Source: Bacteroidota bacterium (GTDB taxonomy: Bacteria > Bacteroidota > Bacteroidia > CAILMK01). Taken from it: a stretch of 64,000 bases of DNA. The notes beneath the pieces are model-generated. The model searched no databases, was not told where the DNA came from, and saw only the letters and a program-made list of their open reading frames with translations. Location: positions 2,030 through 66,029 of the forward strand of contig JABDBQ010000010.1 in NCBI GenBank assembly GCA_013288555.1, written 5' to 3'. Position 1 is the stretch's first letter; the number at the start of each line of letters is the position of its first letter. The position numbers and the translations under genes are program-made. This document shows positions 14,307 to 31,716 of the stretch, in pieces.

Positions 14307-14343
14307 AATGAGGCAATTTGAAAATGAATTTCATTGCCTCATT
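14307..14343. terminator. Hairpin between convergent genes (11-bp perfect stem AATGAGGCAAT / ATTGCCTCATT, 15-nt loop)
   Basis: Arms at 14307-14317 and 14333-14343. The right arm overlaps the stop codon of the minus-strand ORF ending at 14339. There is no strong U-tract, so terminator function is inferred. Confidence 0.5.
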
Positions 14344-15790
14344 GTCTTATTGGCTCATTTTCAAATAGTTTTTCAATTTCATTTAGTAACCAGATGGCGT
14401 TGACAACGTTTTTGGTTTCGATCACCGTTTGCTTCAAGGCTTTGATTTTATTATTGTTGTGCCTGCGCTCATAAGGCAGCATGATTTTATACACAAAGGC
14501 TTTCCGGGCAAATTTCAGCAGGTTGCTATATGTATCAAAAGTATCGGTTGAAATAAGTTTGTTCCTGCTGAGATAGGCTTTGAATGTGGTAATTAATGCA
14601 AAAAAAGACTCTTCCTCATCCAGTTCAAAATAGATTTTGAGCAGCATGGACTTAGAATCCAGGTTATAGTAAACGTCCTTAAAATCAACAGATTGCAATA
14701 AGCGGGTTGCTTTTTTATATTCCCTGGTTTCGTAATAATAGTTGGCCAGGTTATACGTATAGGCGTTTTCACGAACTTCTCCGGGCAATTCCGGTTTCAG
14801 CTCATTAATGATCTTATAGGTCCACTCATGATCTCCCAAACGCAAAGCAATAGAAACCATGTTTTTCAAATCCCACTGCAGGTTTTTGTTATTTGCCTTC
14901 ATAAGCCCTATCTCATGCATATATTTATATATATCAAGCAATTCATTGTAAAACTTTGACACACCGCTGTTTACTTTCCTTATACAATAGTTTTGAAGGT
15001 ATCCGTATAGAGACCGTTGTTCGTCCTGTTCAAAAAGTTGAATATGCTTAGTAACGTCATCTTTCAAAACATTAAAATGCTCCATATTATTGGGGTCCTT
15101 GAGCATAACCAGAATACGGTAATAAATTGAAATGGAAGGTATTACGGTATACTTTTCAAAATTTAATTTTACGATTTCCAATAACTCATCCAGCATGTTA
15201 AATTCATAATCTATGGCCAGAATGCGTTTCCGGTTCATCATTTCACAACTGTCCCTGAGTTTGGCAGATAAATAAAAGATATCCAGCTGATCCACTTTTT
15301 TCTGAAGGCTTTCATCCCCTTGTATTCTCGCCTGATCAAGGAAAATTTTATCAGCCTCCGCCTGGTACTGGAATTCTTCATAATAATAATTGCTGTCACG
15401 ATATGGCTTTTGACTGCTCATTTCCAGAATATCTTTTTGGACAACAGAATACAACTCTTCCAGTTGATTGACTCTGATATAATTGAGGAGGTTAAGTTTT
15501 TGATTCCATTGCTGTTCTGTATATTGTTCTTCGCTCAGAAACGTCTCCATTAATCGCAGAGATTTATACATCAGATCAGGAATTCTGCGCTCTTCGAAAA
15601 TTTTACCCGGGTAAAGTTTTGAATAGATCTCTTCTTTCGAAACATTGAATTTTCCCGGACAAATCAATTTTACAAAGCCTGTAATCTCCTCATTTTTATT
15701 AAAATATGGCGATTGCAAAAAGTCAAGAAACCTTAATTGCTGCTGCTTATTCAGCTTTTGAAGCGTTTTATAAAATTTGCTCTGTTCCAT
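14339..15790 (-). CDS. Uncharacterised all-alpha TPR-like cytoplasmic protein (partner A of giant T9SS protein)
   Basis: 483 aa with no signal peptide or TM segment, colinear with paralog 20617-22065. Shared blocks include SPYFNKNEE, KLNLLNYIRVN, FYLSAKLRDSCEMMNRKRIL, DEQRSLYGYLQNYCIRKVNSG and FKDVYYNLDSKSMLLKIYFE. TPR-like NLANYYYET...KKAT. Confidence 0.75.
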   Translation of the reverse strand: MEQSKFYKTLQKLNKQQQLRFLDFLQSPYFNKNEEITGFVKLICPGKFNVSKEEIYSKLYPGKIFEERRIPDLMYKSLRLMETFLSEEQYTEQQWNQKLNLLNYIRVNQLEELYSVVQKDILEMSSQKPYRDSNYYYEEFQYQAEADKIFLDQARIQGDESLQKKVDQLDIFYLSAKLRDSCEMMNRKRILAIDYEFNMLDELLEIVKLNFEKYTVIPSISIYYRILVMLKDPNNMEHFNVLKDDVTKHIQLFEQDEQRSLYGYLQNYCIRKVNSGVSKFYNELLDIYKYMHEIGLMKANNKNLQWDLKNMVSIALRLGDHEWTYKIINELKPELPGEVRENAYTYNLANYYYETREYKKATRLLQSVDFKDVYYNLDSKSMLLKIYFELDEEESFFALITTFKAYLSRNKLISTDTFDTYSNLLKFARKAFVYKIMLPYERRHNNNKIKALKQTVIETKNVVNAIWLLNEIEKLFENEPIRQ

Positions 15791-15978: not shown

Positions 15979-18900
15979 ATGAAAACAACTAACTTTTCAC
16001 TCAATATGAAAGCACAAATCAACCCCACCCGGGCTCGCAGGTTTCAATTAAATCTAGCAGCCATCCTGCTTTTAATTATTCTCTTTAATGGCTTCAAAAC
16101 CCATGGCCAAAAAGTCAAAAACTTTGCCGCCAATCAGCCCTTCCTTTTTGAAGAAAACAAAGGACAGCTAATGGATGAATCCGGGAATACACTTTCAGAC
16201 ATTAAATACTATGGAAAACAGGGAGATGTATACGTATACTGCAAACCCGGCATGTTGAGTTTTGTTTTCACAAAGATTGAAAAGCAAGCAAATGATGTTT
16301 CCGAGGCAACAGGTATGGAAACGGGATCCCCCTTTGGAAAGCATGTCCCGACTTATTCGGGAGGGGCAGGGGGATTTAAGCGCTCTTCCCACGCCGCACT
16401 CCACGCTTCTGTTTCCACTTCACGAATGGACCTCGTTCTCCTTGGCTCCAATCCCACCCCGTTAATCTCCGCCACAGACCAACAGGAATATTATGAAAAT
16501 TTCTATATCAGTGGGGATGCCAATCGCGAAATCACGAATGTACACACCTATAAAAAAGTTATTTATAAAAACATATATCCGAATATCGACATGCTGCTCA
16601 ATATTGCCAATAAAGGCATGGAATATTCCTTTTTGGTACACCCAGGCGGAAAGGTGAATAATATAAAATTGAGATGGGATGGAGCTGAGAAAGAAGAAGC
16701 TCTAAAAAATGGCGGTATCAAATATGCCAATATTTCGGGAAGCATGGAAGAGAGTGCACCGAAGAGTTTTGTGGATGGGAAAACAATTCAGAGCAGGTTT
16801 TTTAAGGACGGAACTCAGTTCAGTTTTAGAGTAGAAAATTATGATAAGAAAAAAGATTTATTAATTGATCCAACATTAGAATGGGCGACGTATTATGGGG
16901 GGAGTAATATTGATGGATCAAATTGCGTATCAGTTGATAAATTAGGGAATATTGCCATTTGTGGTACTACGGTATCAACATCCGGTATTGCTACTACTGG
17001 ATCATTTCAGTCAACATATTTATATTATTCAGGAGGGTCTGCATATGACGCATTTATTGCCACATTCAGTAACGATGGAAAAAGGCGCTGGGCAACATAT
17101 TATGGATCCTATTTTTCGACTTATGGTCTAATGGGACTAGCATTTGACGGATCCGGAAATGTATATCTTGGAGGAAGTACCGATCAACAAAGCAATATTG
17201 CAACTTCTGGCGCTTACCAAACAACAACAAATTATCAGGATGCGTATCTGGTTAAGTTTGATACTAGTGGTTACAGGCTGTGGGGAACATATTTCGGCGG
17301 AAATTATATTACAAATCTTACAGGAGTTGCTACGGATTCCTCAAATAATGTGTATATAACCGGATTAACCAGAAGTACTACTAATATAGCTACAAATGGG
17401 GCCTATCAAACTTCCATGGCAGGAGGGACAAGTTATGGTGATGCTTTTTTGGCAAAATTCAGCTCAAGCGGTTCAATAATCTGGTCGACCTATTTTGGCG
17501 GTTCCAGCGATGACCTGCCATTTTCAGTGTCAGTTGACAGACTTCAGAATATTTATATAACAGGTCAAACTTCCAGTACAAATGGTATTGCTACATCGGG
17601 GGCTTATAGAACTTATTACAATGGAGGTAATCAATGCGATGGCTTTTTAACAAAATTTAATACAAATGGAGGATTGACCTGGTCTACTTATTTTGGTGGA
17701 CTCGGCTCTGAAGGGGCCGGATTTAAAACTGCAATTGATCGCATTGGCAATATTTATTTAACAGGAATTGCAACAAATTCAGGTTTAGCTACTAGCGGCG
17801 CTTTCAAAACTAATTTCAGCGGCAATGGTGAAGGATTTTTAGCAAAATTTAATACTTCAGGTTACCCCAAATGGGTAACCTATTATGATGGAGGGATTGA
17901 AGGCGTGGTAGTAGATGACACAGGAAACATCTTTATAACAGGCGGAACCCAGAGCACAACCGGAATGACTACGAAATATGCATATCAATCCACACCAACC
18001 AACTTATATCTTGCGCAATTTGACAGCTCGGGCTCGCGACTTTGGGGAACTTATTATGGTTGGGTTGGCACTCCAAATTATGATGAAGTTTTTGGAATTG
18101 CCTGTGACAAATGGAACCATATTTATATTACTGGATTTACAACCAATTCATCAGGGATTTCAACTAAGTATAGTTATCAGCCGTCATATGGAGGGGGCGA
18201 GGATGCATTCTTAGCCAGATTCAAGCTTTGGGCTCATAATGATGCTGGGATAGATTCAATTCAAATCCCAAATGTTAACTGTGCTGATAGCTATCAGGTA
18301 AAAGTAGTATTAAAAAATTACGGATTAAATCCCCTGAAAAAGGTTAACATTCGATTGGATATTAATAGCGATTCATCAAAAACATACCCATGGACCGGAA
18401 ATTTGCAAATGGATAGTTCCGCTTTTGTCAACATGGGATATTTCAATTTTAAACCAGGTAAAGATTCAGTTCGTGTATGGACATCAATGCCCAATGGAGT
18501 TATTGATTCTATTCCACAAAATGATTCTGCGATGGTTATTGCTACTGTTAATTCTTTACCGAATGCTTACACCAGAGGCAATCTTACAATTTGTCAGGGG
18601 CCAGACAGTATTCCCATAGGAACAACATCAATTACCGGCCATACTTATTTGTGGACTTCCAAACCTTCGGGCTTTACCTCAAATATTGATGATCCATTTG
18701 TTAAACCAACAAAAACAACTACATATTACTTAACAGAAACGATTACTGCGACGGGATGTTCTGCTACAGATTCCTCAGTAATATCCGTTAATCCTATACC
18801 AACTGCAAATGCTGGAAAAAGCCGATCAATTTGCTATGGTTATGTTGATACCCTTGGCTCATCCGATGTACCGGGTGATACTTACGCATGGTTCGAATAT

Positions 18901-20535
18901 AATAAAGGGAATATATCTTCTTTAAGCAATCCTATAGTTAAACCAACTAAGACAACGAGGTATTACTTATTTGTAACTAATACCTATTCATGTGCTGATT
19001 CAGACTCAGTGACAATTACTGTCAACCCATTACCAACAGCAAATGCCGGTAAAGACACTTTGATATGTGCAGGAGATTCAGTTCAGTTAGGCGCCGAAAG
19101 TATAACAGGAGATAGTTATTCCTGGTCGGTGGGTCCGGATTCCGAATATAGCTCAACTCTTTCAAATCCTGTTGTTTATCCATTAAAACCCACAACCTAT
19201 TATCTCAGCGTAACAAATGTAAATACGGGCTGTAAAGGAAAAGCGACCGTTTCAGTGAAAGTTAACCCGATACCTTATGCAGATATTTATACTACTGATA
19301 GTGTTTTTTGCCTGTCAGATTCACTTACAGTTTATGACTCTGATACACAGTCAGTTTCTCATAAGTGGTACTTTGGAGATGGTGTTTCTGACACTGGTAA
19401 ATATCCGGCAAAGCATCATTACAAATCAGGAGGTGTATACCATATCTGGCTAAAAGTCACAAATACAACAGGTTGTTCTGATTCATCAGAAAAGACTATC
19501 TATGTTGATGGCTCCTGCGTCTGGCCAGGTGATGCCAACTACGATAAAGTGGATAACATCTATGATCTCCTTGCTATAGGTATTGCCTACAACGATACAG
19601 GAAGCAAAAGAACTGATACGACTACCCAATGGTATGCACATCCCTGCGTAGACTGGACTAAAAGTTTTAAATCGGGGGCAAACCACAAACATGCAGACTG
19701 CAACGGTGATGGAAAAGTAGACAGCCTGGACATGGCTGCCATTGTTAGGAATTACAGCAAATCACATTCAAAATCAGGTGGTTCCATCACCAGTGGCAAC
19801 CCTAATGATCCAGAACTGTCTTTATCGATTTCAAAAGACAGTGTGGGCACTTCGGATACTATATCTATAGAGATGAATCTCGGTACAGCCTCAAAATCCC
19901 TTAGCAACATATACGGTATCGCCTTAACAGTCACTTATGATCCGGTAAATACAGGCCGTGCCAAAAGTTTTTCAGCTGATTTTTCAAATTGCTGGATGGG
20001 AACAGTTGGTAAAAACCTGGTCTATCTTATTCATAATGATTCGATAAATGGTGTTATGGATATTGGTATTACCAGGACAGATCATAAGAACATATCAGGT
20101 TATGGTGAAATTGGTAAACTCACGATCATTATGCCGGATAATGTAGGTGGCAAAAGATTAATCAGGAAAGAATTACGATTTGGTTTGGAGAATATCAAGG
20201 CTATTGATAATGTGGAAGATGATATATCATTGTATACAGTTGGGGATTCCGTATTATTTTATGGCTATTCGAGTGGGATAGCGCCTCTAACCAATACTGA
20301 TAATAATATACGTCTCTATCCCAACCCTGCCCAGTCCACGCTGCACTTAGATGCTGGAAAAGAATTAATTTCTGAAATCGGTATATCAGATATGCTGGGC
20401 AGAAATGTAATGACACTCAAATACAACCAGGTAGGGCAAACAGATATGAATATCGGCCGCCTTATTCCGGGTACTTATTTTATATATATTCTTACAGATC
20501 ATGGTTTTGCACGTTCGAGGTTTGTAAAAGAATAA
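15979..20535 (+). CDS. Giant secreted surface protein 1: N-terminal domain + SBBP beta-propeller repeats + CARDB-like + 3 Ig-like modules + PKD + dockerin-like + cohesin-like + T9SS C-terminal sorting domain
   Basis: 1518 aa. Signal anchor LAAILLLIILF. QPFLFEENKGQ N-domain. About 10 repeats of the type GIATSGAYQT...GG.DAFLAKF..SG...W(S/A)TY(F/Y)GG. NDAGI...KNYG (CARDB-like). PTANAGKD..IC.GDS...Y.W modules. YFGDG...GVYHIWLKVTNTTGCSDS (PKD). GDANYDKVDNIYD and DCNGDGKVDSLD loops. C-terminal LYPNPAQSTLHLD...GTYFIYILTD (T9SS type A CTD). Confidence 0.85.
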   Translation: MKTTNFSLNMKAQINPTRARRFQLNLAAILLLIILFNGFKTHGQKVKNFAANQPFLFEENKGQLMDESGNTLSDIKYYGKQGDVYVYCKPGMLSFVFTKIEKQANDVSEATGMETGSPFGKHVPTYSGGAGGFKRSSHAALHASVSTSRMDLVLLGSNPTPLISATDQQEYYENFYISGDANREITNVHTYKKVIYKNIYPNIDMLLNIANKGMEYSFLVHPGGKVNNIKLRWDGAEKEEALKNGGIKYANISGSMEESAPKSFVDGKTIQSRFFKDGTQFSFRVENYDKKKDLLIDPTLEWATYYGGSNIDGSNCVSVDKLGNIAICGTTVSTSGIATTGSFQSTYLYYSGGSAYDAFIATFSNDGKRRWATYYGSYFSTYGLMGLAFDGSGNVYLGGSTDQQSNIATSGAYQTTTNYQDAYLVKFDTSGYRLWGTYFGGNYITNLTGVATDSSNNVYITGLTRSTTNIATNGAYQTSMAGGTSYGDAFLAKFSSSGSIIWSTYFGGSSDDLPFSVSVDRLQNIYITGQTSSTNGIATSGAYRTYYNGGNQCDGFLTKFNTNGGLTWSTYFGGLGSEGAGFKTAIDRIGNIYLTGIATNSGLATSGAFKTNFSGNGEGFLAKFNTSGYPKWVTYYDGGIEGVVVDDTGNIFITGGTQSTTGMTTKYAYQSTPTNLYLAQFDSSGSRLWGTYYGWVGTPNYDEVFGIACDKWNHIYITGFTTNSSGISTKYSYQPSYGGGEDAFLARFKLWAHNDAGIDSIQIPNVNCADSYQVKVVLKNYGLNPLKKVNIRLDINSDSSKTYPWTGNLQMDSSAFVNMGYFNFKPGKDSVRVWTSMPNGVIDSIPQNDSAMVIATVNSLPNAYTRGNLTICQGPDSIPIGTTSITGHTYLWTSKPSGFTSNIDDPFVKPTKTTTYYLTETITATGCSATDSSVISVNPIPTANAGKSRSICYGYVDTLGSSDVPGDTYAWFEYNKGNISSLSNPIVKPTKTTRYYLFVTNTYSCADSDSVTITVNPLPTANAGKDTLICAGDSVQLGAESITGDSYSWSVGPDSEYSSTLSNPVVYPLKPTTYYLSVTNVNTGCKGKATVSVKVNPIPYADIYTTDSVFCLSDSLTVYDSDTQSVSHKWYFGDGVSDTGKYPAKHHYKSGGVYHIWLKVTNTTGCSDSSEKTIYVDGSCVWPGDANYDKVDNIYDLLAIGIAYNDTGSKRTDTTTQWYAHPCVDWTKSFKSGANHKHADCNGDGKVDSLDMAAIVRNYSKSHSKSGGSITSGNPNDPELSLSISKDSVGTSDTISIEMNLGTASKSLSNIYGIALTVTYDPVNTGRAKSFSADFSNCWMGTVGKNLVYLIHNDSINGVMDIGITRTDHKNISGYGEIGKLTIIMPDNVGGKRLIRKELRFGLENIKAIDNVEDDISLYTVGDSVLFYGYSSGIAPLTNTDNNIRLYPNPAQSTLHLDAGKELISEIGISDMLGRNVMTLKYNQVGQTDMNIGRLIPGTYFIYILTDHGFARSRFVKE
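16324..16377 (+). repeat. Nested palindromic element embedded in-frame in giant gene 1
   Basis: GGATCCCCCTTTGGAAAG-CATGTCCCGACTTATTCGGGA-GGGGCAGGGGGATTT. The same element occurs intergenically at 31662-31716 (opposite orientation) and, without the inner 21-nt hairpin, at 58566-58601. Here it encodes ...GSPFGKHVPTYSGGAGGFK... Confidence 0.8.
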
Positions 20536-20616: not shown

Positions 20617-22065
20617 TTATTGGGCATCTTCCATCAATTTATCCGTTTCTTTTAAAAGCCAGGCAAGATTGATTACATTTTTCGAACGGGTCAGTTTGTC
20701 ATTCAATGTCCTGATTTTATGAGAACTATGCCTGCGTTGATAGGGAAGCATCGTCTTGAATACAAATGCTTTCCTGGCAAATTTTAAAAGATTGCTGTAA
20801 GCCAGATGGGTATCTGTTGAAATCAACCTGTTTCTGGTGAGAAAAACCTGAAAAGTATTGACAAGGGCAAAAAATGCTTCTTCTTCATCCTGCTCAAAGT
20901 ATATTTTCAGTAGCATCGATTTGGAATCCAGGTTATAATACACGTCTTTAAAATCGACAGAATGAAGAAGAAGGGTCGCTTTTCTGAAATTTTTGGTTTC
21001 GTAATAATAATTGGCAAGATTATATGCGTATGCATTTTCAGACACCTCTTCGGGCAGCCTTGTTTTCAAAGTTTCGACAATGTCTAACGCCCTCTCGTAT
21101 TTGCCAAGTCGCAAAGCCACCGAAACCATGTTCTTAAGTTCCCATTGCAGATTTTTATTATCAGGGTCCATAAGCCCGATAAGCAGCATATGCTCATAGA
21201 TATCAAACAATTCACTATAAAATGCCGCAGCACCGCTGTTTACTTTTCGTATGCAGTAATTTTGAAGATAGCCGTACAGCGAACGTTGTTCGTCCTGGGG
21301 AAATAACCCGATGTTTTGCTGAAATTCTTCCTGCAGCTTTCTGAAATGCCCGGTATCTTCCGGTTCCCTGAGCATGAGCAGGATTCTGAAATATACTGAG
21401 ATGGCAGGATAATCTTTATATCTCTCAAAATCAGCCTTAATGGCTTCAATAAGGTTATTGAGCAGGTGAAATTCATAGTCAATGCTAAGAATCCTTTTTC
21501 GGTTCATCATTTCACAACTGTCTCTCAGCTTTGCCGAGAGATAAAAAAGATCAAGCCTGTCCACTTTTTTCTGGAGGTTTTCATCTCCTTTGATCTGTGC
21601 CTGGTCGAGAAAAATTTTATAGGCCTCCGACTGGTACATGAATTCCTCATAAAAATAATTACTATCCCTGAACTGCTTTTTAGAACTTAACTCCTGTATC
21701 TCCCGCTGCACCACGCTGTTAAGATCTTCCAGTTCATTTACTCTTATGTAATTAAGCAGATTCAATTTGCGATCCCATGTTTGTGTAGCGTATTGTTCTT
21801 CAGTCAAAAATTCTTCGAGCAGCTTGAGTGATTTGTACAAAAGATCATGCAACCTTCTCGCATCAAATGGCTTACCGGGATATAAAAATTCATAGATTTT
21901 TTTTGGATCATGACTTGCTTTGCCTTGCCGGATCAATGCAACAAATTGCCGAACCTCCTCATTTTTATTAAAATATGGAGAATTTAGAAACTCGATATAC
22001 CGCCTTTGACTGACTTTATCCAGTTTGTCATACGTTTTAATAAATTTACTCTGGTCCATATCCAA
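20617..22065 (-). CDS. Uncharacterised all-alpha TPR-like cytoplasmic protein (partner B, paralog of 14339-15790)
   Basis: 482 aa. Colinear with 14339-15790 and roughly two-thirds identical by eye. Same divergent arrangement with a giant T9SS gene. Confidence 0.75.
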   Translation of the reverse strand: MDMDQSKFIKTYDKLDKVSQRRYIEFLNSPYFNKNEEVRQFVALIRQGKASHDPKKIYEFLYPGKPFDARRLHDLLYKSLKLLEEFLTEEQYATQTWDRKLNLLNYIRVNELEDLNSVVQREIQELSSKKQFRDSNYFYEEFMYQSEAYKIFLDQAQIKGDENLQKKVDRLDLFYLSAKLRDSCEMMNRKRILSIDYEFHLLNNLIEAIKADFERYKDYPAISVYFRILLMLREPEDTGHFRKLQEEFQQNIGLFPQDEQRSLYGYLQNYCIRKVNSGAAAFYSELFDIYEHMLLIGLMDPDNKNLQWELKNMVSVALRLGKYERALDIVETLKTRLPEEVSENAYAYNLANYYYETKNFRKATLLLHSVDFKDVYYNLDSKSMLLKIYFEQDEEEAFFALVNTFQVFLTRNRLISTDTHLAYSNLLKFARKAFVFKTMLPYQRRHSSHKIRTLNDKLTRSKNVINLAWLLKETDKLMEDAQ

Positions 22066-22248: not shown

Positions 22249-25200
22249 ATGAAAACAACTAACTTTTCACTCAATATGAAAGCGCATATCAAAATCAACC
22301 CTGCCGACAGATTTCATTCAATTCTGAAGGTAGTCCTGTTTCTGATTCTTTTACTTAAAGGATTACAAACCGAGGCTCAATCCGTTAAAAACTTTGCTAC
22401 TACCCAGCCCTTCTTATTCGAAGAAAACAAAGGACAGCTTAGGGATGAAAACGGGAATGCGCTTTCAGATATCAAATATTATGGAAAACAGGGAGGTGTA
22501 TATATATACTGCAAACCTGGCATGCTGAGTTTCGTATTCACCAAGTCAGAAAAAGAGCCAAATGATATTTCAGAGGCAACTGGGATGCCTGTTTCAGACC
22601 TAGGGGTTCACAATCCTGAATCCATACACGGAAATCAGCGCTCTCCGCTCTCCGCTCTTCGCACTTCTATCACCGCCTCCCGTATGGACCTCGTTCTCCT
22701 CAACTCCAACCCCAATCCTTTAATCACCGCCTCAGACCAACAGGAATATTTTGAAAACTTCTATACCATCGGAGATGCAGATCATGGCATCACCAATGTA
22801 CACACCTATAAAACCCTTATATACAAAAATATATACCCGAATATTGACATGCTGCTCAATGTTGCTGAAAAGGGAATGGAATATTCTTTTTTAGTACACC
22901 CCGGCGGAAATGTGAGCGATATTAAACTGAGATGGAATGGCGCAGAGAAAGAAGAAGCATTGAAAAATGGCGGAATAAAATATGCTAATATGTTGGGGAG
23001 CATGGAAGAAAGTGCACCAAAGAGTTTTGCGGATGGGAAAATGATACAAACAAGTATTTTCAAGGAAGCAAAACAATTCAGTTTTAAAGTAGGACGATAT
23101 AATAAGGGAAAAAAACTATTAATTGACCCCACATTGGTCTGGGCTACGTATATCGGTGGACCCAATTCAAATGCTGGTGGAATAAAGTTAGATGCCGCAG
23201 GAAATTTATACATTGCAGGCACTACAACCCTCGACAACTATTTAACTACCTCTGGTGCATACCAAACATCTTATGGTGGGAATAATGATATTTTCCTTGC
23301 AAAGTTTAGCAACGACGGAAAGCGTCTATGGGCTAGTTATTATGGCGGTTCTGATCAGGATCTTGGTGCTGATTTGAATCTGGATATTCATGGAAATATT
23401 TATATTACTGGAAATACTAAAAGCAGTAATGGTATTGCTACTTCTGGCGCATTTAAAACTTCGTATCCCGGAGGATGGTACGATCCGTTTCTTGCAAAAT
23501 TTAGCAATTCGGGCAATCTGATCTGGGCAACTTATTTTGGAGGCTCCAACTATGATGAATCTGCAAGCGTTGGAACCGACTCTTCTGGGAATGTATATAT
23601 TGGAGGCTGGGCAAGCAGCACTAGTGGGATAGCAACATCTGGTGCACAGCAGACTTATCCTCAAGGAGGGGCAGACGCTTTTCTCGCAAAATTTAATAGT
23701 TCTGGCAGTTTAACATGGGCCACGTATTATGGAGGTTCTGGGCAGGATTATTTATATGGAATGAGCACAGATGCTAAAGGCAATTGTTATTTGACAGGCA
23801 CCACAACTAGTAGTAGTGGAATTGCATTTTCGGGATTTCAAAGCAATTATTATGGCGATACTGATTTTAATGGTACTGTTACTTATGGTGGTGATGCCTT
23901 TCTGGCAAAATTTAATAGCTCTGGACGTCTCCAATGGGGAACATATTACGGTGGGAGCGGTGGCGATGATGCTTCAGGTGTGACGACTGACACTAAAGGA
24001 AACGTTTATATAACAGGCTCAACCACCAGTTTAGGCCGAATTGCAACTACAGGTGCTTTTCAAACTTCGCGAAGTGGGGATGCAGATGGTTTTCTAGTTA
24101 AATTTAACAGCTCCGGGTCACGAATTTGGGGAACATATTATGGAGGTAACTGGAATGCTAACTTAGGCGGAATATCTTTGGACTCAAAGGGTAATATTTA
24201 TTGCACAGGATCAACAAATAGTGATAGTGGAATCGCGACAGTAGGAGCATATGAGACTTCAAATAAATCAGGTCACCAAGATATAATTCTTGCGAAATTC
24301 AACAATACCGGGAACCGCATCTGGGCGACTTATTTAGGAGGAAATGGTACTGATGATGCAGGTGAATCGGTAATCGATTCATCAGGTAATCTTTATTTTA
24401 CAGGTTCTAGTCAAAGTACTGACTTAGCAACTTATAATGCATATCAATCCAATATTGAAACTTTTGGTAATTATTTCGGCATAATAGCAAAATTTACACT
24501 TAATACATATCAAAATGACGCAGGCATTTTGCCAACTCTTGATTCTGTTTCATTTTGTAAAACGCAAAATATATTTGTCCGCCTGAAAAATTTCGGCGGT
24601 AAAGACCTTGATTCAGTCAAAGTTGGTTTATCTATTAATCATAAATTTCAAACTAAATATAATTGGACGGGGAAATTGAAACCTGATAGTACAGTTATTG
24701 TTGATATCGGGAGTTTTTCATTCAATACCGGTCATGATACTGTAATTGCCTGGACTTTGAAACCCAATGGATTATTAGATTCACTTCAGGGTAATGATAC
24801 AGCAATTATCAGTCTTACTCAGAAAGCAAATGCTGGCGGCAACTTTACAATTTGTAGTGGTGGTTCTATTAGAATAGGTTCAAATCCTATAAGCGGCCGT
24901 TCATATTCATGGACTTCAATTCCTGCCGGTTTTACGTCTACAATAAGTGATCCCTATGTAAACCCTCATAAGAATACAACTTATTATCTAATTGAGACGA
25001 TTAATGCCACAGGATGTTCCGATACAGATTCATCGTCAGTTGTTTTATTACCGAATGCAAGAGCAAGTTTTTCCTACAAAACCGGATGTGTTGGAGAAAC
25101 TACAATTTTTATAGATTCGAGCTCATTAGCAAAATCCTATTTTTGGTATTTTGGTGATCATTCTGGTTCCTCTGATTCAAGTATGCATCTTTTACATTTG

Positions 25201-26550
25201 TACAATGATACAGGAACTTATTCTGTTTTTTTGAAGGTGACTAATTCTGACGGTTGTTCTGATTCAATTTCAAAAAATATTACACCCAGACCAAAACCTA
25301 AAGCAGAATATTCTTTTAATAATGTTTGTCCGGGTGATAGTATATCTTTTGTAAATAAAAGCTCAAAATCAAATTCCTATTATTGGGATTTTGGAGACGG
25401 AACATCTTCAACCGATTCAACTCCACCAAAACACTTATATTCGAAATTGGGATCTTATGATGTAAGTTTGGTAGTTATTAATTCAGCTAATTGTGCGGAT
25501 TCAATTTCAAAAACGGTTATGATTTCTCCCTGCGTCTGGCCGGGGGATGCCAACTATGATAAAGTTGATAATATCTATGACCTCCTTGCTATTGGAATCG
25601 CTTATAACGATACTGGCTTTAAAAGAACAGATACCACCACGCAATGGTATGCCCATCCCTGTATGGATTGGAGCAAAAATTTTAAATCGGGTGCAAACCA
25701 CAAACATGCTGATTGTAACGGCGATGGAAAAGTGGATAGCCTTGATATGGCTGCCATCGTAAGGAATTACAGCAAATCACATTCAAAGTCTGGTGGTTCG
25801 ATTACAAGCGGCAACCCAAATGATCCTGCTTTATCTTTATCGATTTCCAAAGACAGTGTTGGCACATCTGATACCATCACTGTACAAATGAATCTCGGGA
25901 CGGCCACGAAAAGCATGAGCAATATTTATGGAATCTGCTATACTGTGACGTATGATCCGGTAAATGTCGGCCGTGCCAAAAGCTTTTCAGCAGATTTTTC
26001 AAATTGCTGGATGGGAACAGTCGGTAAAAACCTGGTCTATCTTGTTCATAACGATTCGGTAAATGGGGTTATGGATATCGGCATAACCAGGACAGATCAT
26101 AAGAATGTATCGGGCTATGGCGAAATTGGTAAACTAACCATTATTACACCCGATAATGTGGGTGGCAAAAGGTTAATCAGGAAAGAACTACGCTTCGGCT
26201 TAGAGAATATCAAAGCCATTGATAATGTGGAAGATGATGTATCATTATATATAGTTGGGGATTCCGTATTATTTTATGGCTATTCAGCTGGTATAGCACC
26301 TCAAACTAATATTGATAATAATATACATCTCTATCCCAACCCTGCACAATCCACAATGCACATAGACGCAGGAAAGGAACTGATTTCTGAAATCGGGATA
26401 TCAGATATCCTGGGTAGAAAAGTAATGACCCTGAAACATGATCAGGTCCGGCAAACAGATATGAACATCAGCAGCCTTATTCCGGGCACTTATTTTATAT
26501 ATATTCTTACAGATCATGGTTTTGCACGTTCGAGATTTGTGAAAGATTAA
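22249..26550 (+). CDS. Giant secreted surface protein 2 (SBBP repeats + CARDB-like + 1 Ig-like module + 3 PKD + dockerin-like + cohesin-like + T9SS CTD)
   Basis: 1433 aa. The N-terminal ~290 aa and C-terminal 339 aa are colinear with gene 1. The centre is divergent, with three PKD-like units (FGDHSG...VFLKVTNSDGCSDS; WDFGDGTSS...VSLVVINSANCADS). Confidence 0.85.
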   Translation: MKTTNFSLNMKAHIKINPADRFHSILKVVLFLILLLKGLQTEAQSVKNFATTQPFLFEENKGQLRDENGNALSDIKYYGKQGGVYIYCKPGMLSFVFTKSEKEPNDISEATGMPVSDLGVHNPESIHGNQRSPLSALRTSITASRMDLVLLNSNPNPLITASDQQEYFENFYTIGDADHGITNVHTYKTLIYKNIYPNIDMLLNVAEKGMEYSFLVHPGGNVSDIKLRWNGAEKEEALKNGGIKYANMLGSMEESAPKSFADGKMIQTSIFKEAKQFSFKVGRYNKGKKLLIDPTLVWATYIGGPNSNAGGIKLDAAGNLYIAGTTTLDNYLTTSGAYQTSYGGNNDIFLAKFSNDGKRLWASYYGGSDQDLGADLNLDIHGNIYITGNTKSSNGIATSGAFKTSYPGGWYDPFLAKFSNSGNLIWATYFGGSNYDESASVGTDSSGNVYIGGWASSTSGIATSGAQQTYPQGGADAFLAKFNSSGSLTWATYYGGSGQDYLYGMSTDAKGNCYLTGTTTSSSGIAFSGFQSNYYGDTDFNGTVTYGGDAFLAKFNSSGRLQWGTYYGGSGGDDASGVTTDTKGNVYITGSTTSLGRIATTGAFQTSRSGDADGFLVKFNSSGSRIWGTYYGGNWNANLGGISLDSKGNIYCTGSTNSDSGIATVGAYETSNKSGHQDIILAKFNNTGNRIWATYLGGNGTDDAGESVIDSSGNLYFTGSSQSTDLATYNAYQSNIETFGNYFGIIAKFTLNTYQNDAGILPTLDSVSFCKTQNIFVRLKNFGGKDLDSVKVGLSINHKFQTKYNWTGKLKPDSTVIVDIGSFSFNTGHDTVIAWTLKPNGLLDSLQGNDTAIISLTQKANAGGNFTICSGGSIRIGSNPISGRSYSWTSIPAGFTSTISDPYVNPHKNTTYYLIETINATGCSDTDSSSVVLLPNARASFSYKTGCVGETTIFIDSSSLAKSYFWYFGDHSGSSDSSMHLLHLYNDTGTYSVFLKVTNSDGCSDSISKNITPRPKPKAEYSFNNVCPGDSISFVNKSSKSNSYYWDFGDGTSSTDSTPPKHLYSKLGSYDVSLVVINSANCADSISKTVMISPCVWPGDANYDKVDNIYDLLAIGIAYNDTGFKRTDTTTQWYAHPCMDWSKNFKSGANHKHADCNGDGKVDSLDMAAIVRNYSKSHSKSGGSITSGNPNDPALSLSISKDSVGTSDTITVQMNLGTATKSMSNIYGICYTVTYDPVNVGRAKSFSADFSNCWMGTVGKNLVYLVHNDSVNGVMDIGITRTDHKNVSGYGEIGKLTIITPDNVGGKRLIRKELRFGLENIKAIDNVEDDVSLYIVGDSVLFYGYSAGIAPQTNIDNNIHLYPNPAQSTMHIDAGKELISEIGISDILGRKVMTLKHDQVRQTDMNISSLIPGTYFIYILTDHGFARSRFVKD

Positions 26551-26629
26551 TTCCGGTTTTTTACACATCAAGACAACAAATTTTTGGACATGAATTATCT
26601 AAACAAAACCATCTAACTTTTCACTCTTT

Positions 26630-29600
26630 ATGAAAGTACAAATCAACCCCACCCTGGCACACAGGTTTCATTTAAATCTAATAGCCATTTTGTTATTAGC
26701 TGTTCTTTTTAATGCCTTCAATTCACAGGCGCAAAAGGTTAAAAACTTCAATACTTCTCAGCCATTCCTCTTTGAAGAGAACAAGGGACAACTGATGGAT
26801 GAAAGCGGGAATGCGCTTAGTGATATTAAATATTATGGAAAGCAGGGAGGTGTATATGTGTATTGCAAGTCCGGCATGTTGAGTTTTGTTTTCACAAAGA
26901 TTGAAAAGGGACAAGATGATGTTTCCGAGGCAACAGGTATGGAAACGGAATCCCCCTTTGGAAAGCATGTCCCGACTTATTCGGGAGGGGCAGGGGGATT
27001 TAAGCGCTCTTCGCTCTCCGCTCTTCACACTTCTATCACTGCCTCCCGCATGGACCTCGTTCTCCTTGGCTCCAACCCCACCCCTTCAATCACCGCCACT
27101 GACCAGCAGGAATACTATGAAAACTTCTACACCGGCGGAGATGCGAACCATGGCATCACCAATGTACACACCTATAAAACCCTTACCTATAAAAACATAT
27201 ACCCGAATATTGATATGAATCTGAATGTTGCCAAAAATGGTATTGAATATTCCTTTTTAGTCCATCCCGGAGGCAATGTAAGCGATATAAAATTGCGATG
27301 GAATGGGGCTGAGAAAGAAGAAGCACTGAAAAATGGAGGGATTAAATATGCCAATACGTTGGGAACATTGGAAGAGAGTGCGCCAAAGAGTTTTGTGGAA
27401 GGGAAATTGGTGAAAAGCATATCTGTTAAAAAAGGATTGGAATATAGTTTTGAGGTTGGAGGCTATGATAAAAGAAAAGATTTGGTTATAGATCCGAGTT
27501 TAGTTTGGGGGACCTATTTTGGAGGGTCAACTGAAGAACTAATATATGGAATTACAACTGATAACTTAAAAAATATATATATTATCGGTGAATCTACCAG
27601 CAAAACTGGAATTACAACCACTGGCGCATTTGAAACAAGTACTCCGAGTACTAATAATGGTGCAGTGCTTTTGGCAAAATTTAATGAGAACGGAACACCA
27701 GCATGGGTAACATACTATGCCGGCAACTCTCAAGATTGGGGTCTTGCAATAACTACTGATTATTTAGGGAACCTTTATTTTACGGGCTATACGTACAGTA
27801 GTTCTGGAATTGCAACTAATGGCACTTATCAAACTTCAACCGTAGGAAATGGGTACTCGGATGTGTTTATTGCAAAGTTTAGTACAGATGGAATTCGTAA
27901 GTGGGGCACATATTTTGGAGGGGCAGGAGACGAATTTGGATTTGATATAAAGATGGACGGACATTCTAATCTGTACGTTACAGGAAAAACCAATAGTAAA
28001 TCTAACATTGCAACCAAAGGAGCATTTCAAACCAGTTTTTCAGGAAAGATTGACGCTTTTCTAGCGCGGTTCGATTCAAGCGGTAATTTGAATTGGGCGA
28101 CATATTTTGGTGCTGATAGTACAATTGGTGAAAAAATAGTTTCAGACTTATCAGGAAATGTTTTTCTGTCAGGAGTAACGGATAGTAACAGTGTTATTGC
28201 AACAAAAGGCGCATATCAGACTTCATATGGTGGAGGTAGAAATGATGCATTCATAGCTAAATTCAATAAAAACGGAAATAGAATATGGTCAACATATTTT
28301 GGAGGCAATTGCTGGGAGAGTTTTAATTCTTCTCAAGGAATTGTCGCTGATAAAAAGGGACATTTATATCTAAGCGGTGGGACATGCAGTCAGACAGGAA
28401 TTGCAACTGCTGGCGCATACCAAACCTCAATAGGGGGGGAAATGATGTTTATCTGGCTAAATTCGATACTAGTGGGAAAATAATATGGAGCACTTATTTT
28501 GGGGGACCGAACGCAGATGATGGATCCAATATTATTTTAGATTCATTTAATAATATTTATATTTCAGGATACACTCAAAGTACTTCGGGTATAGCAACAA
28601 CCGATGCATTTCAACCAACATATAGCAGTGGCTATAACAACACCTTTATTGCAAAATTTGATAATAATGGCTCAAGATTATGGGCTTCCTATTATGGTTT
28701 TAGCTGGTGTTATGGAATTGTCTGGTTAAATGATTATCAAATTTTAATCGCTGGATATGCGACAAATACCCCAGGAATCGCTACATCAGGTGCATTTCAA
28801 ACAAAATCAAAAGGCACTTGGAATGGTTTTATTGCGGATATAAATTTTAAAGTCAATAATGATGCAGGCATAAGTTCAATACCTTCCTCTAAAGGTGTTT
28901 TTTGTGGGAATTCTCAACAATTGAAGATATCATTAAAAAATTATGGTAATCATGAATTGGATTCCGTAAAAATTGGATGGTCGGTTAACAGCAAAGTTGT
29001 ATCATCGTATGCCTGGACTGGCAAGTTAAAATCAGACAGTTCAATTTCCGTAACTCTCGGCAGTTTTAAATTCCCAAATGGAACTGACACCATAAAAGTC
29101 TGGACCTATAACCCAAATGGCACTACCGATTCGACTCCGCAGAATGATTCCTCCTTTGCAATTATTACAGTCAATCCTACCCCATCCGCCAATGCGGGAA
29201 AAAACAGATCGGTATGCTTTGGAGTTATGGATACTATTGGCTCTTCATCAGTACCTAACGATGCTTATTTCTGGACTTCAAATCCAACAAGTGTAATTGG
29301 TTCGGTTAGCAATCCAGTAGTTAGTCCTGCTGTCACAACAACTTATTATCTCTACGAAACCAATTCATACGCATGTGTTGGTAAAGACTCAGTAACACTA
29401 ACTGTTAACCCATTGCCAACAGCAAATGCCGGAAAAGACACATTGGTTTGCTTTGGTGATTCGGTTTTTCTTGGCACTAAACCAGATACAGGTTATTCAT
29501 ACAGTTGGTCTTCAAGCCCTTCAGGTTTTAGGTCTATCCTTGCAAATCCCCGCCTAGTTCCAAAGTCCAGCGCTGCATATTATCTCTCGATTACTTCCAA

Positions 29601-30915
29601 TAGTACCGGCTGCACCGGGCTTGATACTGCATATGGTTCCGTCAACCCTCTGCCCCATGCCAGATTTTCAGTATCCGATACTCTTTTTTGTACACAGGAT
29701 TCGCTTGGTTTAATAGATTCATCAACCGGTGCGGTTTCTTATGTATGGACATTTGGGGATGGGACTACCGATACCGGCAAAAATATTCATAAACATCATT
29801 TTACAAAGACGGGCCCTTATCATATCCGGCTTATTGTTACCAATTCATCAGGGTGTTCAGATTCCACGAAAACCTGGGTGTATCCTGATGGTGACTGCGT
29901 CTGGCCCGGTGATGCCAACTATGATAAGGTTGACAATATTTACGATCTCCTTGCAATTGGTATTGGCTATAATAATAGTGAATATAATAGATTGGATACC
30001 ACCACCCAATGGTATGCGCATCCCTGCGAAGACTGGCATAAAAGCTTCAAATCCGGAACAAATTATAAACATGCGGATTGCAATGGCGATGGAATAATTG
30101 ACAGCCTGGATATAGCCGCCATCATACGGAATTACAGCAAATCACATTCAAAGTCCGGTGGTTCTATTACAAGCGGCAACCCGAATGACCCGGCTCTGTC
30201 TTTATCCATATCCAAAGATAGTGTTGGCACTTCAGATACCATATCTGTACAGATGAATCTCGGGACAGCCTCAAAATCCCTCAGCAATATTTATGGCATC
30301 TGTTATACTGTTACGTATGATCCGGTAAATGTAGGCCGCGCCAAAAGCTTTTCAGCAGATTTTTCGAATTGCTGGATGGGAACAGTTGGTAAAAACCTGG
30401 TCTATCTTGTTCATAACGATTCGGTAAACGGGGTTATGGATATCGGCATAACCAGGACAGATCATAAGAATGTATCAGGGTATGGCGAAATTGGTAAACT
30501 CACCATTATTACACCTGATAATGTGGGCGGCAAAAGGTTAATCAGGAAAGAACTTCGGTTTGGTTTTGAGAACATAAAAGCCATTGATAATGTGGAAGAT
30601 GATGTATCATTATATACAGTGGGAGATTCTGTATTATTTTATGGCTATTCAGCTGGTATAGCACCCCAAACTAATACTGATAGTAATATACATCTCTATC
30701 CCAACCCTGCACAATCCATATTGCACATAGACGCAGGAAAGGAACTGATTTCTGAAATCGGGATATCGGATATCCTGGGTAGAAAAGTGATGACTATGAA
30801 ATATGCTCAGGTCCGGCAAACAGATATGAACATCAATAGCCTTATTCCGGGTACTTATTTTATATATATTTTTACAGATCATGGTTTTGCACGTTCGAGA
30901 TTTGTGAAAGATTAA
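26630..30915 (+). pseudogene. Giant secreted surface protein 3, interrupted by a frameshift in a G7 tract (ORFs 26630-28483 and 28384-30915)
   Basis: The two ORFs are contiguous parts of one paralog. At 28433-28439 (GGGGGGG) the frame changes. With 8 G the reading is ...AYQTSIGGGNDVYLAKFDTSGKIIWSTYFGG, a canonical SBBP repeat, giving one 1428-aa ORF. Confidence 0.8.
26956..27010 (+). repeat. Nested palindromic element embedded in-frame in giant gene 3
   Basis: GGAATCCCCCTTTGGAAAGCATGTCCCGACTTATTCGGGAGGGGCAGGGGGATTT, near-identical to 16324-16377. Gene 2 has unrelated sequence at this position. Confidence 0.8.
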
Positions 30916-30980: not shown

Positions 30981-31360
30981 GTGAAACATTTTTAAAAATA
31001 TTTTTGCTTATAACTAAATGAATATAAATAAGATAAAAAATATTTTTGGAAATCACCCACCCAGTTTGGTACTTCACTATATATGTATATAAAAGGCGTT
31101 AGGCATCAGGAGTTAGGAGTTAGAGGCTGGCGCAAACAAATTGAACAAAATCCTCTTAATTCTAAAATCCTGTAAATCCTGATTCAGAAAAATATGAAAA
31201 AGATAAACCTTTGCTTTTTGGCATTCTCGATTGATCCCGAGTGCTCGGGACTGTTATTGTCTGATATTTGTCAATGAATTACGTGTAAATAACTAAATTT
31301 CAATAAGCTAAAAAATGAAAAAATGAATTTCCCTGTTAAAACAGTGAGAACACGTGTGCC

Positions 31361-31447
31361 GCCTGTCCCGCCTGTCCCGCCTGTCCCGACCTCTTCGGGG
31401 ACCTCTTCGGGGACTTATTCTGGGACTTCTTCGGGGACTTATCCGGG
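31361..31447. repeat. Tandem repeats: 9-mer GCCTGTCCC x3, then 12-mer GACYTNTTCGGG x5
   Basis: 9-mers at 31361-31387 and 12-mers at 31388-31447. The units are the two arms of the CCTGTCCCGA-loop-TCGGGA hairpin element amplified separately. ORF 31323-31517 is just their translation. Confidence 0.85.
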
Positions 31448-31661: not shown

Positions 31662-31716
31662 TCCCCCTACCCTCCCGAGTAATCGGGACAGGCACTTTGG
31701 AAAGGGGGAATCCCTA
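31662..31716. repeat. Nested palindromic element, intergenic copy (opposite orientation to the copies in the giant genes)
   Basis: TCCCCCTACCCTCCCGAGTAATCGGGACAGGCACTTTGGAAAGGGGGAATCCC. The inner hairpin is TCCCGA-GTAA-TCGGGA at 31673-31688. Confidence 0.8.

Follow-up and report, generated by a model that had tools for sequence, protein, structure and literature searches.

Homopolymers within coding sequences are known sites of reading-frame change in several bacteria. The products of Mycobacterium tuberculosis glpK (7C/7G; PMC10334774) and Listeria monocytogenes inlA (poly(A); PMC2831843) are truncated when a homopolymer of about 7 nt in the coding sequence changes by one base; in both cases the truncation is reversible in principle by slippage, and the function concerned is dispensable or surface-exposed. 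In Neisseria, Haemophilus and Campylobacter, poly-G/C loci lie in the open reading frames (ORFs) of surface-associated proteins that belong to multigene families; there are tens of such tracts, usually of 8-13 nt or longer, over-represented, placed in surface or modification genes and heterogeneous in reads. Here we analysed a 64,000-nt stretch of DNA (the window; positions 2,030 to 66,029, forward strand, of contig JABDBQ010000010.1 in the Bacteroidota bacterium assembly GCA_013288555.1), in which a run of seven G (28433..28439, forward strand) interrupts the third of three giant tandem genes. This gene, gene 3 (26630..30915, forward strand), would code for a surface protein with SBBP repeats and a sorting domain of the type IX secretion system (T9SS). 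We propose that a very recent slippage deletion, from eight G to seven, silenced a redundant paralog, a reading to which we give about an even chance.

With glpK and inlA, gene 3 shares a truncation by one base in a tract of about 7 nt, its reversibility in principle and a dispensable or surface-exposed function; with the loci of Neisseria, Haemophilus and Campylobacter, it shares a G tract in the ORF of a surface-family protein. However, length variation in glpK and inlA has been documented across many isolates and reversion has been measured, whereas here one length was found in one sample. The inlA tract lies at the extreme 5' end of its gene, whereas that of gene 3 lies in the middle, at codon 602 of 1428, 42% of the gene length. 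The window is contig C10 of a genome bin (G000; 2.84 Mb in 102 contigs, 67.5% complete, 39.7% GC) that, in contrast to the genomes with many poly-G/C loci, holds 25 G/C tracts of at least 7 nt at a frequency that follows geometric decay, mostly in housekeeping genes and with no heterogeneity seen in contigs.

Between 28430 and 28446 the sequence reads ATA GGGGGGG AAATGAT, with exactly seven G at 28433-28439 (context ...CCTCAATA GGGGGGG AAATGATG...), and this tract is the point at which the reading frame switches. The upstream ORF (26630..28483, forward strand, frame 2, 617 aa) ends in ...YQTSIGGEMMFIWLNSILVGK, also written ...AGAYQTSIGGEMMFIWLNSILVGK, and its last 15 codons (28439-28483, forward strand) are an out-of-frame tail without meaning. 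The downstream ORF (28384-30915, frame 1, 843 aa) starts with MQSDRNCNCWRIPNLNRGGNDVYLAKFDTSGKIIWSTYFGG; its listed start at 28384 is likewise junk, from another frame of the fifth SBBP blade, and the true frame of this half occupies 28438..30915 on the forward strand (825 codons plus stop). The two ORFs are fused either by a -1 shift (one G added, 8 G), which gives 1428 aa with the local read-through ...YQTSIGGGNDVYLAKFDTSG..., or by a +2 shift (two G removed, 5 G), which gives 1427 aa and reads ...YQTSIGGNDVYLAKF...; the junction-spanning peptide of the full-length product is ...YQTSIGGGNDVYLAK.... A length change of one base is therefore enough to toggle the reading frame of gene 3, and since an 824-codon open frame has a probability of ~3e-24 at this composition, the split gene is not due to chance. 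The tract encodes Gly-Gly(-Gly) in the YQTS-x-GG(G)-x-D-x-[FY]-L-A-K-F strand of an SBBP blade.

A first-pass annotation of this DNA had placed the frame switch at the seven G, had described the ends of both ORFs at the junction as out-of-frame junk and had claimed that an eighth G restores a 1428-aa SBBP/T9SS protein by completing a repeat such as that found in gene 2. Reading of the sequence and of the two translations, together with alignment of the read-through to genes 1 and 2, confirmed these points, and gene 2 does hold the comparison motif YQTSYGGNNDIFLAKF. For annotation, 26630-30915 should thus be treated as one frameshifted gene and not as two proteins. In the public protein collection, the depositor's call for the downstream half is a protein of 652 aa (P0042) with an internal start about 190 codons past the tract; the public record thus annotates a fragment of gene 3, not a pseudogene.

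Genes 1 (15979..20535, forward strand, 1518 aa) and 2 (22249..26550, forward strand, 1433 aa) are intact paralogs and served as yardsticks. The read-through of gene 3 carries one frameshift and is collinear with both: end-to-end alignment gives identities of 67-81% for the N-terminal ~300 residues, 29-60% for the core and 77-97% for the C-terminal ~350 residues. The three tandem paralogs have a common architecture, with a signal peptide, DUF7948, a seven-blade SBBP propeller, Ig_7/PKD domains, a dockerin-like module and a T9SS C-terminal sorting domain; Pfam recovered DUF7948, the SBBP repeats, Ig_7, PKD and the sorting domain on them, and the dockerin-type match was weak. In gene 3 the seven W-x-[TS]-Y blades cover residues 293-685 of the read-through and the break falls between blades 5 and 6. 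The upstream half holds the signal peptide, DUF7948 (residues 48-289, E=6.6e-46) and blades 1-5 (SBBP, E=3.6e-18; for gene 2, E=1e-37), while the downstream half, with no signal peptide of its own, holds blades 6-7, Ig_7, PKD, the dockerin-like module and the sorting domain. SBBP scores of 65.7 bits for P0001 and 34.2 bits for P0002, against a Pfam cut-off of 20.5, place these proteins in PF06739. The sorting domain scored 38.7 bits with TIGR04183 (cut-off 23) and 38.9 bits with PF18962 (cut-off 27), and NCBIfam confirms it as type A.

Like known T9SS type A cargo (TIGR04183 / PF18962), the gene 3 read-through combines an N-terminal signal peptide with a C-terminal sorting domain that scores over the curated cut-offs, and SprA is encoded in the bin; unlike such cargo, gene 3 at 7 G has the two signals on different ORFs and hence on separate polypeptides, and only the read-through unites them. 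The propeller is of the type described for SBBP proteins (PF06739), among them the LipL53-type lipoproteins of Leptospira (NF047494) and CylK (PDB 7fh6/7ron), with which it has in common the seven-blade repeat W-x-T-Y-[FY]-G-G ... Y-Q-T-S-x-G-G-x-D-x-F-L-A-K-F. The solved propeller of CylK is matched by that of the giant genes at E=9e-34; however, the giant-gene score against NF047494 is far under the equivalog cut-off (152 vs 400 bits), and here DUF7948 stands ahead of the propeller while Ig_7/PKD, the dockerin-like module and the T9SS sorting domain stand behind it. No function can be transferred. Literature searches returned no papers on DUF7948 and nothing relevant on SBBP combined with T9SS. 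The family comprises about 25 paralogs in the bin, at least 20 of them full-length loci and two directly upstream of gene 3, and such genome-wide counts carry a caveat because read depth spreads about 80-fold within the bin.

If the break were old, further decay would be visible downstream of it. Neither a stop nor a further indel occurs in the 825 codons past the tract; 4.5% of the possible substitutions in them would make a stop, which limits the divergence accumulated neutrally after the break to about 0.006 (P=0.5) to 0.027 (P=0.05) substitutions per site, and to less when indels are counted. The ratio of nonsynonymous to synonymous substitution rates (dN/dS) between gene 3 and genes 1/2 was 0.10-0.15 for the C-terminal block, and for the core past the tract it was 0.16-0.28 (0.10-0.33 over all gene 3 segments), values that we judge alike to those of the intact gene 1-gene 2 pair (0.09 and 0.34, respectively). 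This similarity is not the product of fresh gene conversion, because the synonymous divergence (dS) of gene 3 from genes 1 and 2 is 0.5-3. The 79-nt spacer before gene 3 (26551..26629, forward strand) can be aligned with those of genes 1 and 2 and keeps their leader block, CAAAT[C/T]TTTG..CATGAATTA..TCTAAA..CTAACTTTTCACTC..ATGAAAG, with two single-base gaps and with loss of the farther-upstream ATG that genes 1 and 2 have. Neither the several lesions nor the dN/dS approaching 1 that mark an old pseudogene were found. Since there is no second lesion, dN/dS is constrained and the leader is retained, the lesion is either very young or not biological. The first-pass annotation had also listed a fixed pseudogene among its options; of this, a very young null allele is what fits best, whereas old decay is contradicted by the single lesion, by dN/dS values like those of the intact pair and by the kept leader.

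We then have to consider whether the seven G are real. The sole public run with the locus is X1 (soil metagenome, 2019), which was examined as independent Logan contigs, and assembler contigs drop rare variants; in a second run, X2, gene 3 is absent. A Logan contig of 3241 nt, at a depth of ~523x, spans 27156-30396 with 0 differences and no gap, and it too has seven G; its depth is uniform and it shows no branch, from 1.3 kb before the tract to 2 kb after it. No alternative or variant contig at the tract was found among the X1 contigs, even at 90% likeness, and these contigs do keep a 25x minor insertion variant at 31396, 3 kb from the tract. Around the tract, no word of at least 20 nt recurs in the bin. 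Because an independent contig has seven G at this depth, with no variant and with unique flanks, an assembler error is very unlikely, and the assembly error that the first-pass annotation had offered as a cause is largely excluded.

The run counts of the bin show how the tract compares with other homopolymers. G runs of lengths 4-9 number 3640, 622, 75, 14, 1 and 1, and C runs 3324, 557, 82, 7, 1 and 1; each extra base up to length 8 lowers the counts 6- to 10-fold, length 7 shows no shoulder, and the four tracts of 8 and 9 (G8, C8, G9 and C9) form a small tail, all of them in-frame. Altogether, 23 of the 25 G/C tracts of at least 7 nt are in-frame, and the ORFs that carry such tracts are mainly housekeeping genes: diacylglycerol kinase, S46 and S41 peptidases, 3-HAO, NuoF, NuoL and Ppk, and further FtsX, LeuRS, an ABC-F protein, UDP-glucose dehydrogenase, TonB, MarC and SprA. 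Only about 5 of the 25 are in T9SS cargo genes; the tracts are thus neither over-represented nor concentrated in surface genes, and the bin as a whole bears no signature of contingency loci. GGG is the rarest Gly codon (15.5%), and in the equivalent YQTS..GG motifs of paralogs (25 found by pattern) the longest G run is 5, so that the tract does not recur among family members, nor does it stand near the 5' end. An incidental origin of the tract is therefore favoured over a designed one, supported by the rarity of GGG, the paralog G runs of at most 5, the geometric run counts and the housekeeping locations.

Frame breaks were also scored genome-wide, using 411 frame-switch-type junctions that are mostly ordinary gene boundaries and were used statistically only. 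Among A/T runs of at least 7, 21 of 2186 (0.96%) lay in a frame-switch-type overlap of two long ORFs, against a background of 0.82% (P=0.26); for G/C runs of at least 7, the figure was 2 of 25 (P=0.018). These results show that there is no platform-wide homopolymer problem and that G/C7 tracts are hot spots at which unrelated genes lose their frame. Apart from the tract of gene 3, a single G/C7 tract is broken, a C7 at C78:4799-4805, and a gene of the COX1 family of haem-copper oxidases (C78:3829-5182, minus strand; L044 830-2156) is split exactly there: its two ORFs match Pfam COX1 at positions 1-120 (upstream ORF) and 123-436 (downstream ORF); the Logan contig, at 11.8x, agrees at the C7. 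That an oxidase gene is split in this way points to a general slippage process. Directly upstream of the split oxidase gene there is a cytochrome c gene. The two longest G/C runs of the bin, of 9 nt, are the G9 of a paralog on C77 and an in-frame C9 in the LeuRS ORF (1137 aa; C9:53743-57153, minus strand; L032); this LeuRS has a DUF559 (Vsr-like endonuclease) domain at residues 341-445, before the editing domain.

Taking these observations together, we hypothesize that gene 3 encoded a T9SS-secreted cell-surface SBBP beta-propeller protein in which Gly-Gly-Gly would by chance have been written GGG GGG GGA, a run of 8 G, and that replication slippage in the living cell dropped one of them. Translation would then stop 15 codons on, inside a propeller with five of its seven blades, and the downstream 825 codons would be stranded without a signal peptide. 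The N-terminal fragment could cross the inner membrane, although it would lack the sorting domain, and the C-terminal part with the sorting domain could not reach the periplasm; because the route by Sec and C-terminal domain that is established for T9SS substrates needs both signals, neither fragment is likely to be competent T9SS cargo, and in the 7-G state the locus would give no surface protein. Such a loss may be tolerated because of the other paralogs in the bin, including the two directly upstream. A slip of +1 could in principle revert the lesion, as a by-product of tract chemistry rather than as an evolved switch.

Several observations weigh against this interpretation, and most of them favour an artefact of the sequenced material, in which the 1428-aa gene is intact in the organism, with 8 G, and the missing G was lost in whole-genome amplification or library preparation that started from very few cells, or by a homopolymer undercall of the read technology, an error that any assembler would then repeat; we regard this as possible, though unlikely. 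The site is a homopolymer and the rest of the gene is faultless, and a single lesion with no other decay is also just what an artefact looks like. The length of the tract was read from assembler contigs. Depth in X1 is uneven, from 12x to 980x across the one bin (C78 ~12x; C21 and C77 18-25x; C83 14-78x; C1 347-984x, with 2.8-fold steps within 20 kb), and the whole run assembles to only 13.4 Mb, which would fit amplified, sorted or low-input DNA; if the DNA was amplified, the 523x may go back to a very small number of template molecules, and a slip in an early round of amplification could have come to prevail. On C21, the reading frame of a paralog breaks at an A7/T7 (C21:1370-1400; L021 1386-1392) that the Logan contig does not reproduce, having one base fewer and the frame restored; the cause of this discrepancy is an error of assembly or a low-depth (18-25x) polymorphism. 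The split of a respiratory-type oxidase gene, likewise at a C7, would be odd for a living cell. Moreover, no orthologue with an 8-G allele was found in the collections searched: the GTDB relatives (41 genomes) gave short matches only, at 64-91% nucleotide identity and none longer than ~270 nt; a pattern scan of JGI metagenomes allowing tracts of 4-12 nt gave 0 matches; an exact-protein look-up gave none on record; and a search of 5.8 billion proteins gave a best non-self match of 46% identity. On the other side, two assemblers agree and show no bubble at ~523x, while the far rarer indel variant nearby survived; the 2186 A/T runs show no excess of frame breaks, and A/T runs are no less prone than G/C runs to polymerase slippage in vitro and to the errors of flow-type sequencers; the G8, C8, G9 and C9 tracts are all in-frame; and amplification is itself only inferred. 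A mis-assembly that joined halves of different paralogs at a shared word would have an apparent precedent on C83, where a paralog (C83:3460-3520; L022 about 960-1010) changes frame inside a GC-rich repeated palindromic element (...CCCCGGTTCATACACGGGGGTAGGGGG...), the supporting X1 contig stops at this element and no contig matches the 340 nt that follow, so that a chimeric join is probable there, a further point that tells against trusting the bin. For gene 3, however, this explanation is extremely improbable and effectively refuted: a repeat-mediated join is excluded because no word of at least 20 nt around the tract recurs, and the Logan contig is unbranched across it.

The remaining explanations accept the seven G and give them a role. 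The first-pass annotation had invoked slipped-strand phase variation; in an evolved form of it, the G tract would be kept as an ON/OFF switch for one member of a variable surface family, with the sampled population in the OFF state. For such a switch speak the toggling of a full-length T9SS surface protein by one base, the conserved ends and hypervariable cores of the family, as expected under diversifying pressure, the otherwise complete maintenance of gene 3 with its leader, the use of GGG GGG GG, an unfavoured spelling of Gly-Gly-Gly in this bin, and the in-frame G9 of the C77 paralog. The bin yielded neither MutS1 nor MutL: its only MutS_V gene (C4:71631-74033) is MutS2-like, with the domain at residue 346 of 800 and a Smr-like C-terminus, and MutL (PF01119) had no match in the bin, which is 67.5% complete; however, this is weak evidence, since a third of the genome is missing from the bin, so that the absence of MutS1 and MutL is unproven, and MutL is present in 17 of 21 relatives. 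Tracts of 7 nt of G/C do act as reversible switches in M. tuberculosis glpK (PMC10334774), but the +1 slippage of a 7G tract in Mycobacterium smegmatis was 3.1e-8 per generation (PMC10334774), far below the rate of classical contingency loci. Against the switch stand also the lack of an equivalent tract at the motif in the other ~25 paralogs, the position of the tract well inside the gene, the geometric decay of G/C tracts and their housekeeping locations, the oxidase gene as the only other OFF tract, and the single tract length, that is one G7 contig at depth 523 with no variant contig, in the assembler contigs of one run. We thus find an evolved switch poorly supported and quite improbable, and a shade more doubtful still the fuller proposal of a working ON/OFF switch in a mosaic T9SS surface family of free-living soil Bacteroidota, perhaps helped by loss of MutS1/MutL; if true, it would extend homopolymer contingency loci to non-pathogenic, environmental Bacteroidota, in which variation is known to proceed by invertible promoters. 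Rescue during expression, the other possibility raised earlier, would leave the DNA at 7 G and have a fraction of the ribosomes slip -1 on G GGG GGG by re-pairing of the P-site tRNA-Gly, or RNA polymerase add a G, to give IGGGNDVY.... A -1 slip of tRNA-Gly in the G run does give exactly the 8-G product, and the downstream frame is open and under purifying selection. However, the zero frame reads ATA GGG GGG GAA, in which both A GGG GGG and G GGG GAA miss the X XXY YYZ heptamer, and the next codon, GAA, is not rare; the 121 nt at 28440-28560 fold at -21.6 kcal/mol, which is no better than shuffles (z = -1.07); and the arrangement is in no homologue or paralog. Neither a canonical slippery heptamer nor a downstream structure was thus found, transcriptional slippage is known mainly at A/T runs of at least 9, and we hold recoding to be very improbable.

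The young null allele that we favour is ordinary in kind: it would illustrate, on a small scale, how copies are lost from a large redundant family of surface proteins through slippage at accidental G runs in Gly codons. Only heterogeneity at the level of reads, if shown, would turn it into a first hint of phase variation by homopolymers in environmental Bacteroidota. The bin needs careful handling because it disagrees with the Logan assembly at one homopolymer or more, and one of its joins is probably chimeric. The C21 and C83 paralogs were considered as further cases of slippage and rejected, the former because the Logan contig contradicts it and the latter because it lies at a repeat junction without read support; the 'in-frame stops' of a paralog on C2 were also rejected as proof of family pseudogenes, since they lie upstream of the true start and the gene is intact. 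The ~80-fold difference in X1 depth between contigs of the bin may reflect uneven amplification, or a dominant organism mixed with a rare relative.

Around the giant genes, two paralogous ORFs of 482-483 aa (14339-15790 and 20617-22065 of the window, minus strand) lie divergently upstream of genes 1 and 2; this pair had no Pfam match at E<=1e-5. The unknown gene and the giant gene are duplicated as a unit, and gene 3 has no such partner. Downstream of gene 3, a 0.8-kb gene-free stretch is filled by small GC-rich hairpin elements (GTCCCGA…TCGGGAC, with amplified arms, among them CCTGTCCCG x3 and GACYTCTTCGGGG x4), located at 31233-31251, 31358-31445 and 31675-31716 of the window. Within the coding sequence of genes 3 and 1, copies occur in frame in the N-terminal linker (26956-27010 and 16324-16377, respectively), and copies also lie beside the G9 of the C77 paralog. 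It is at these hairpins that Logan contigs break off and become cross-joined.

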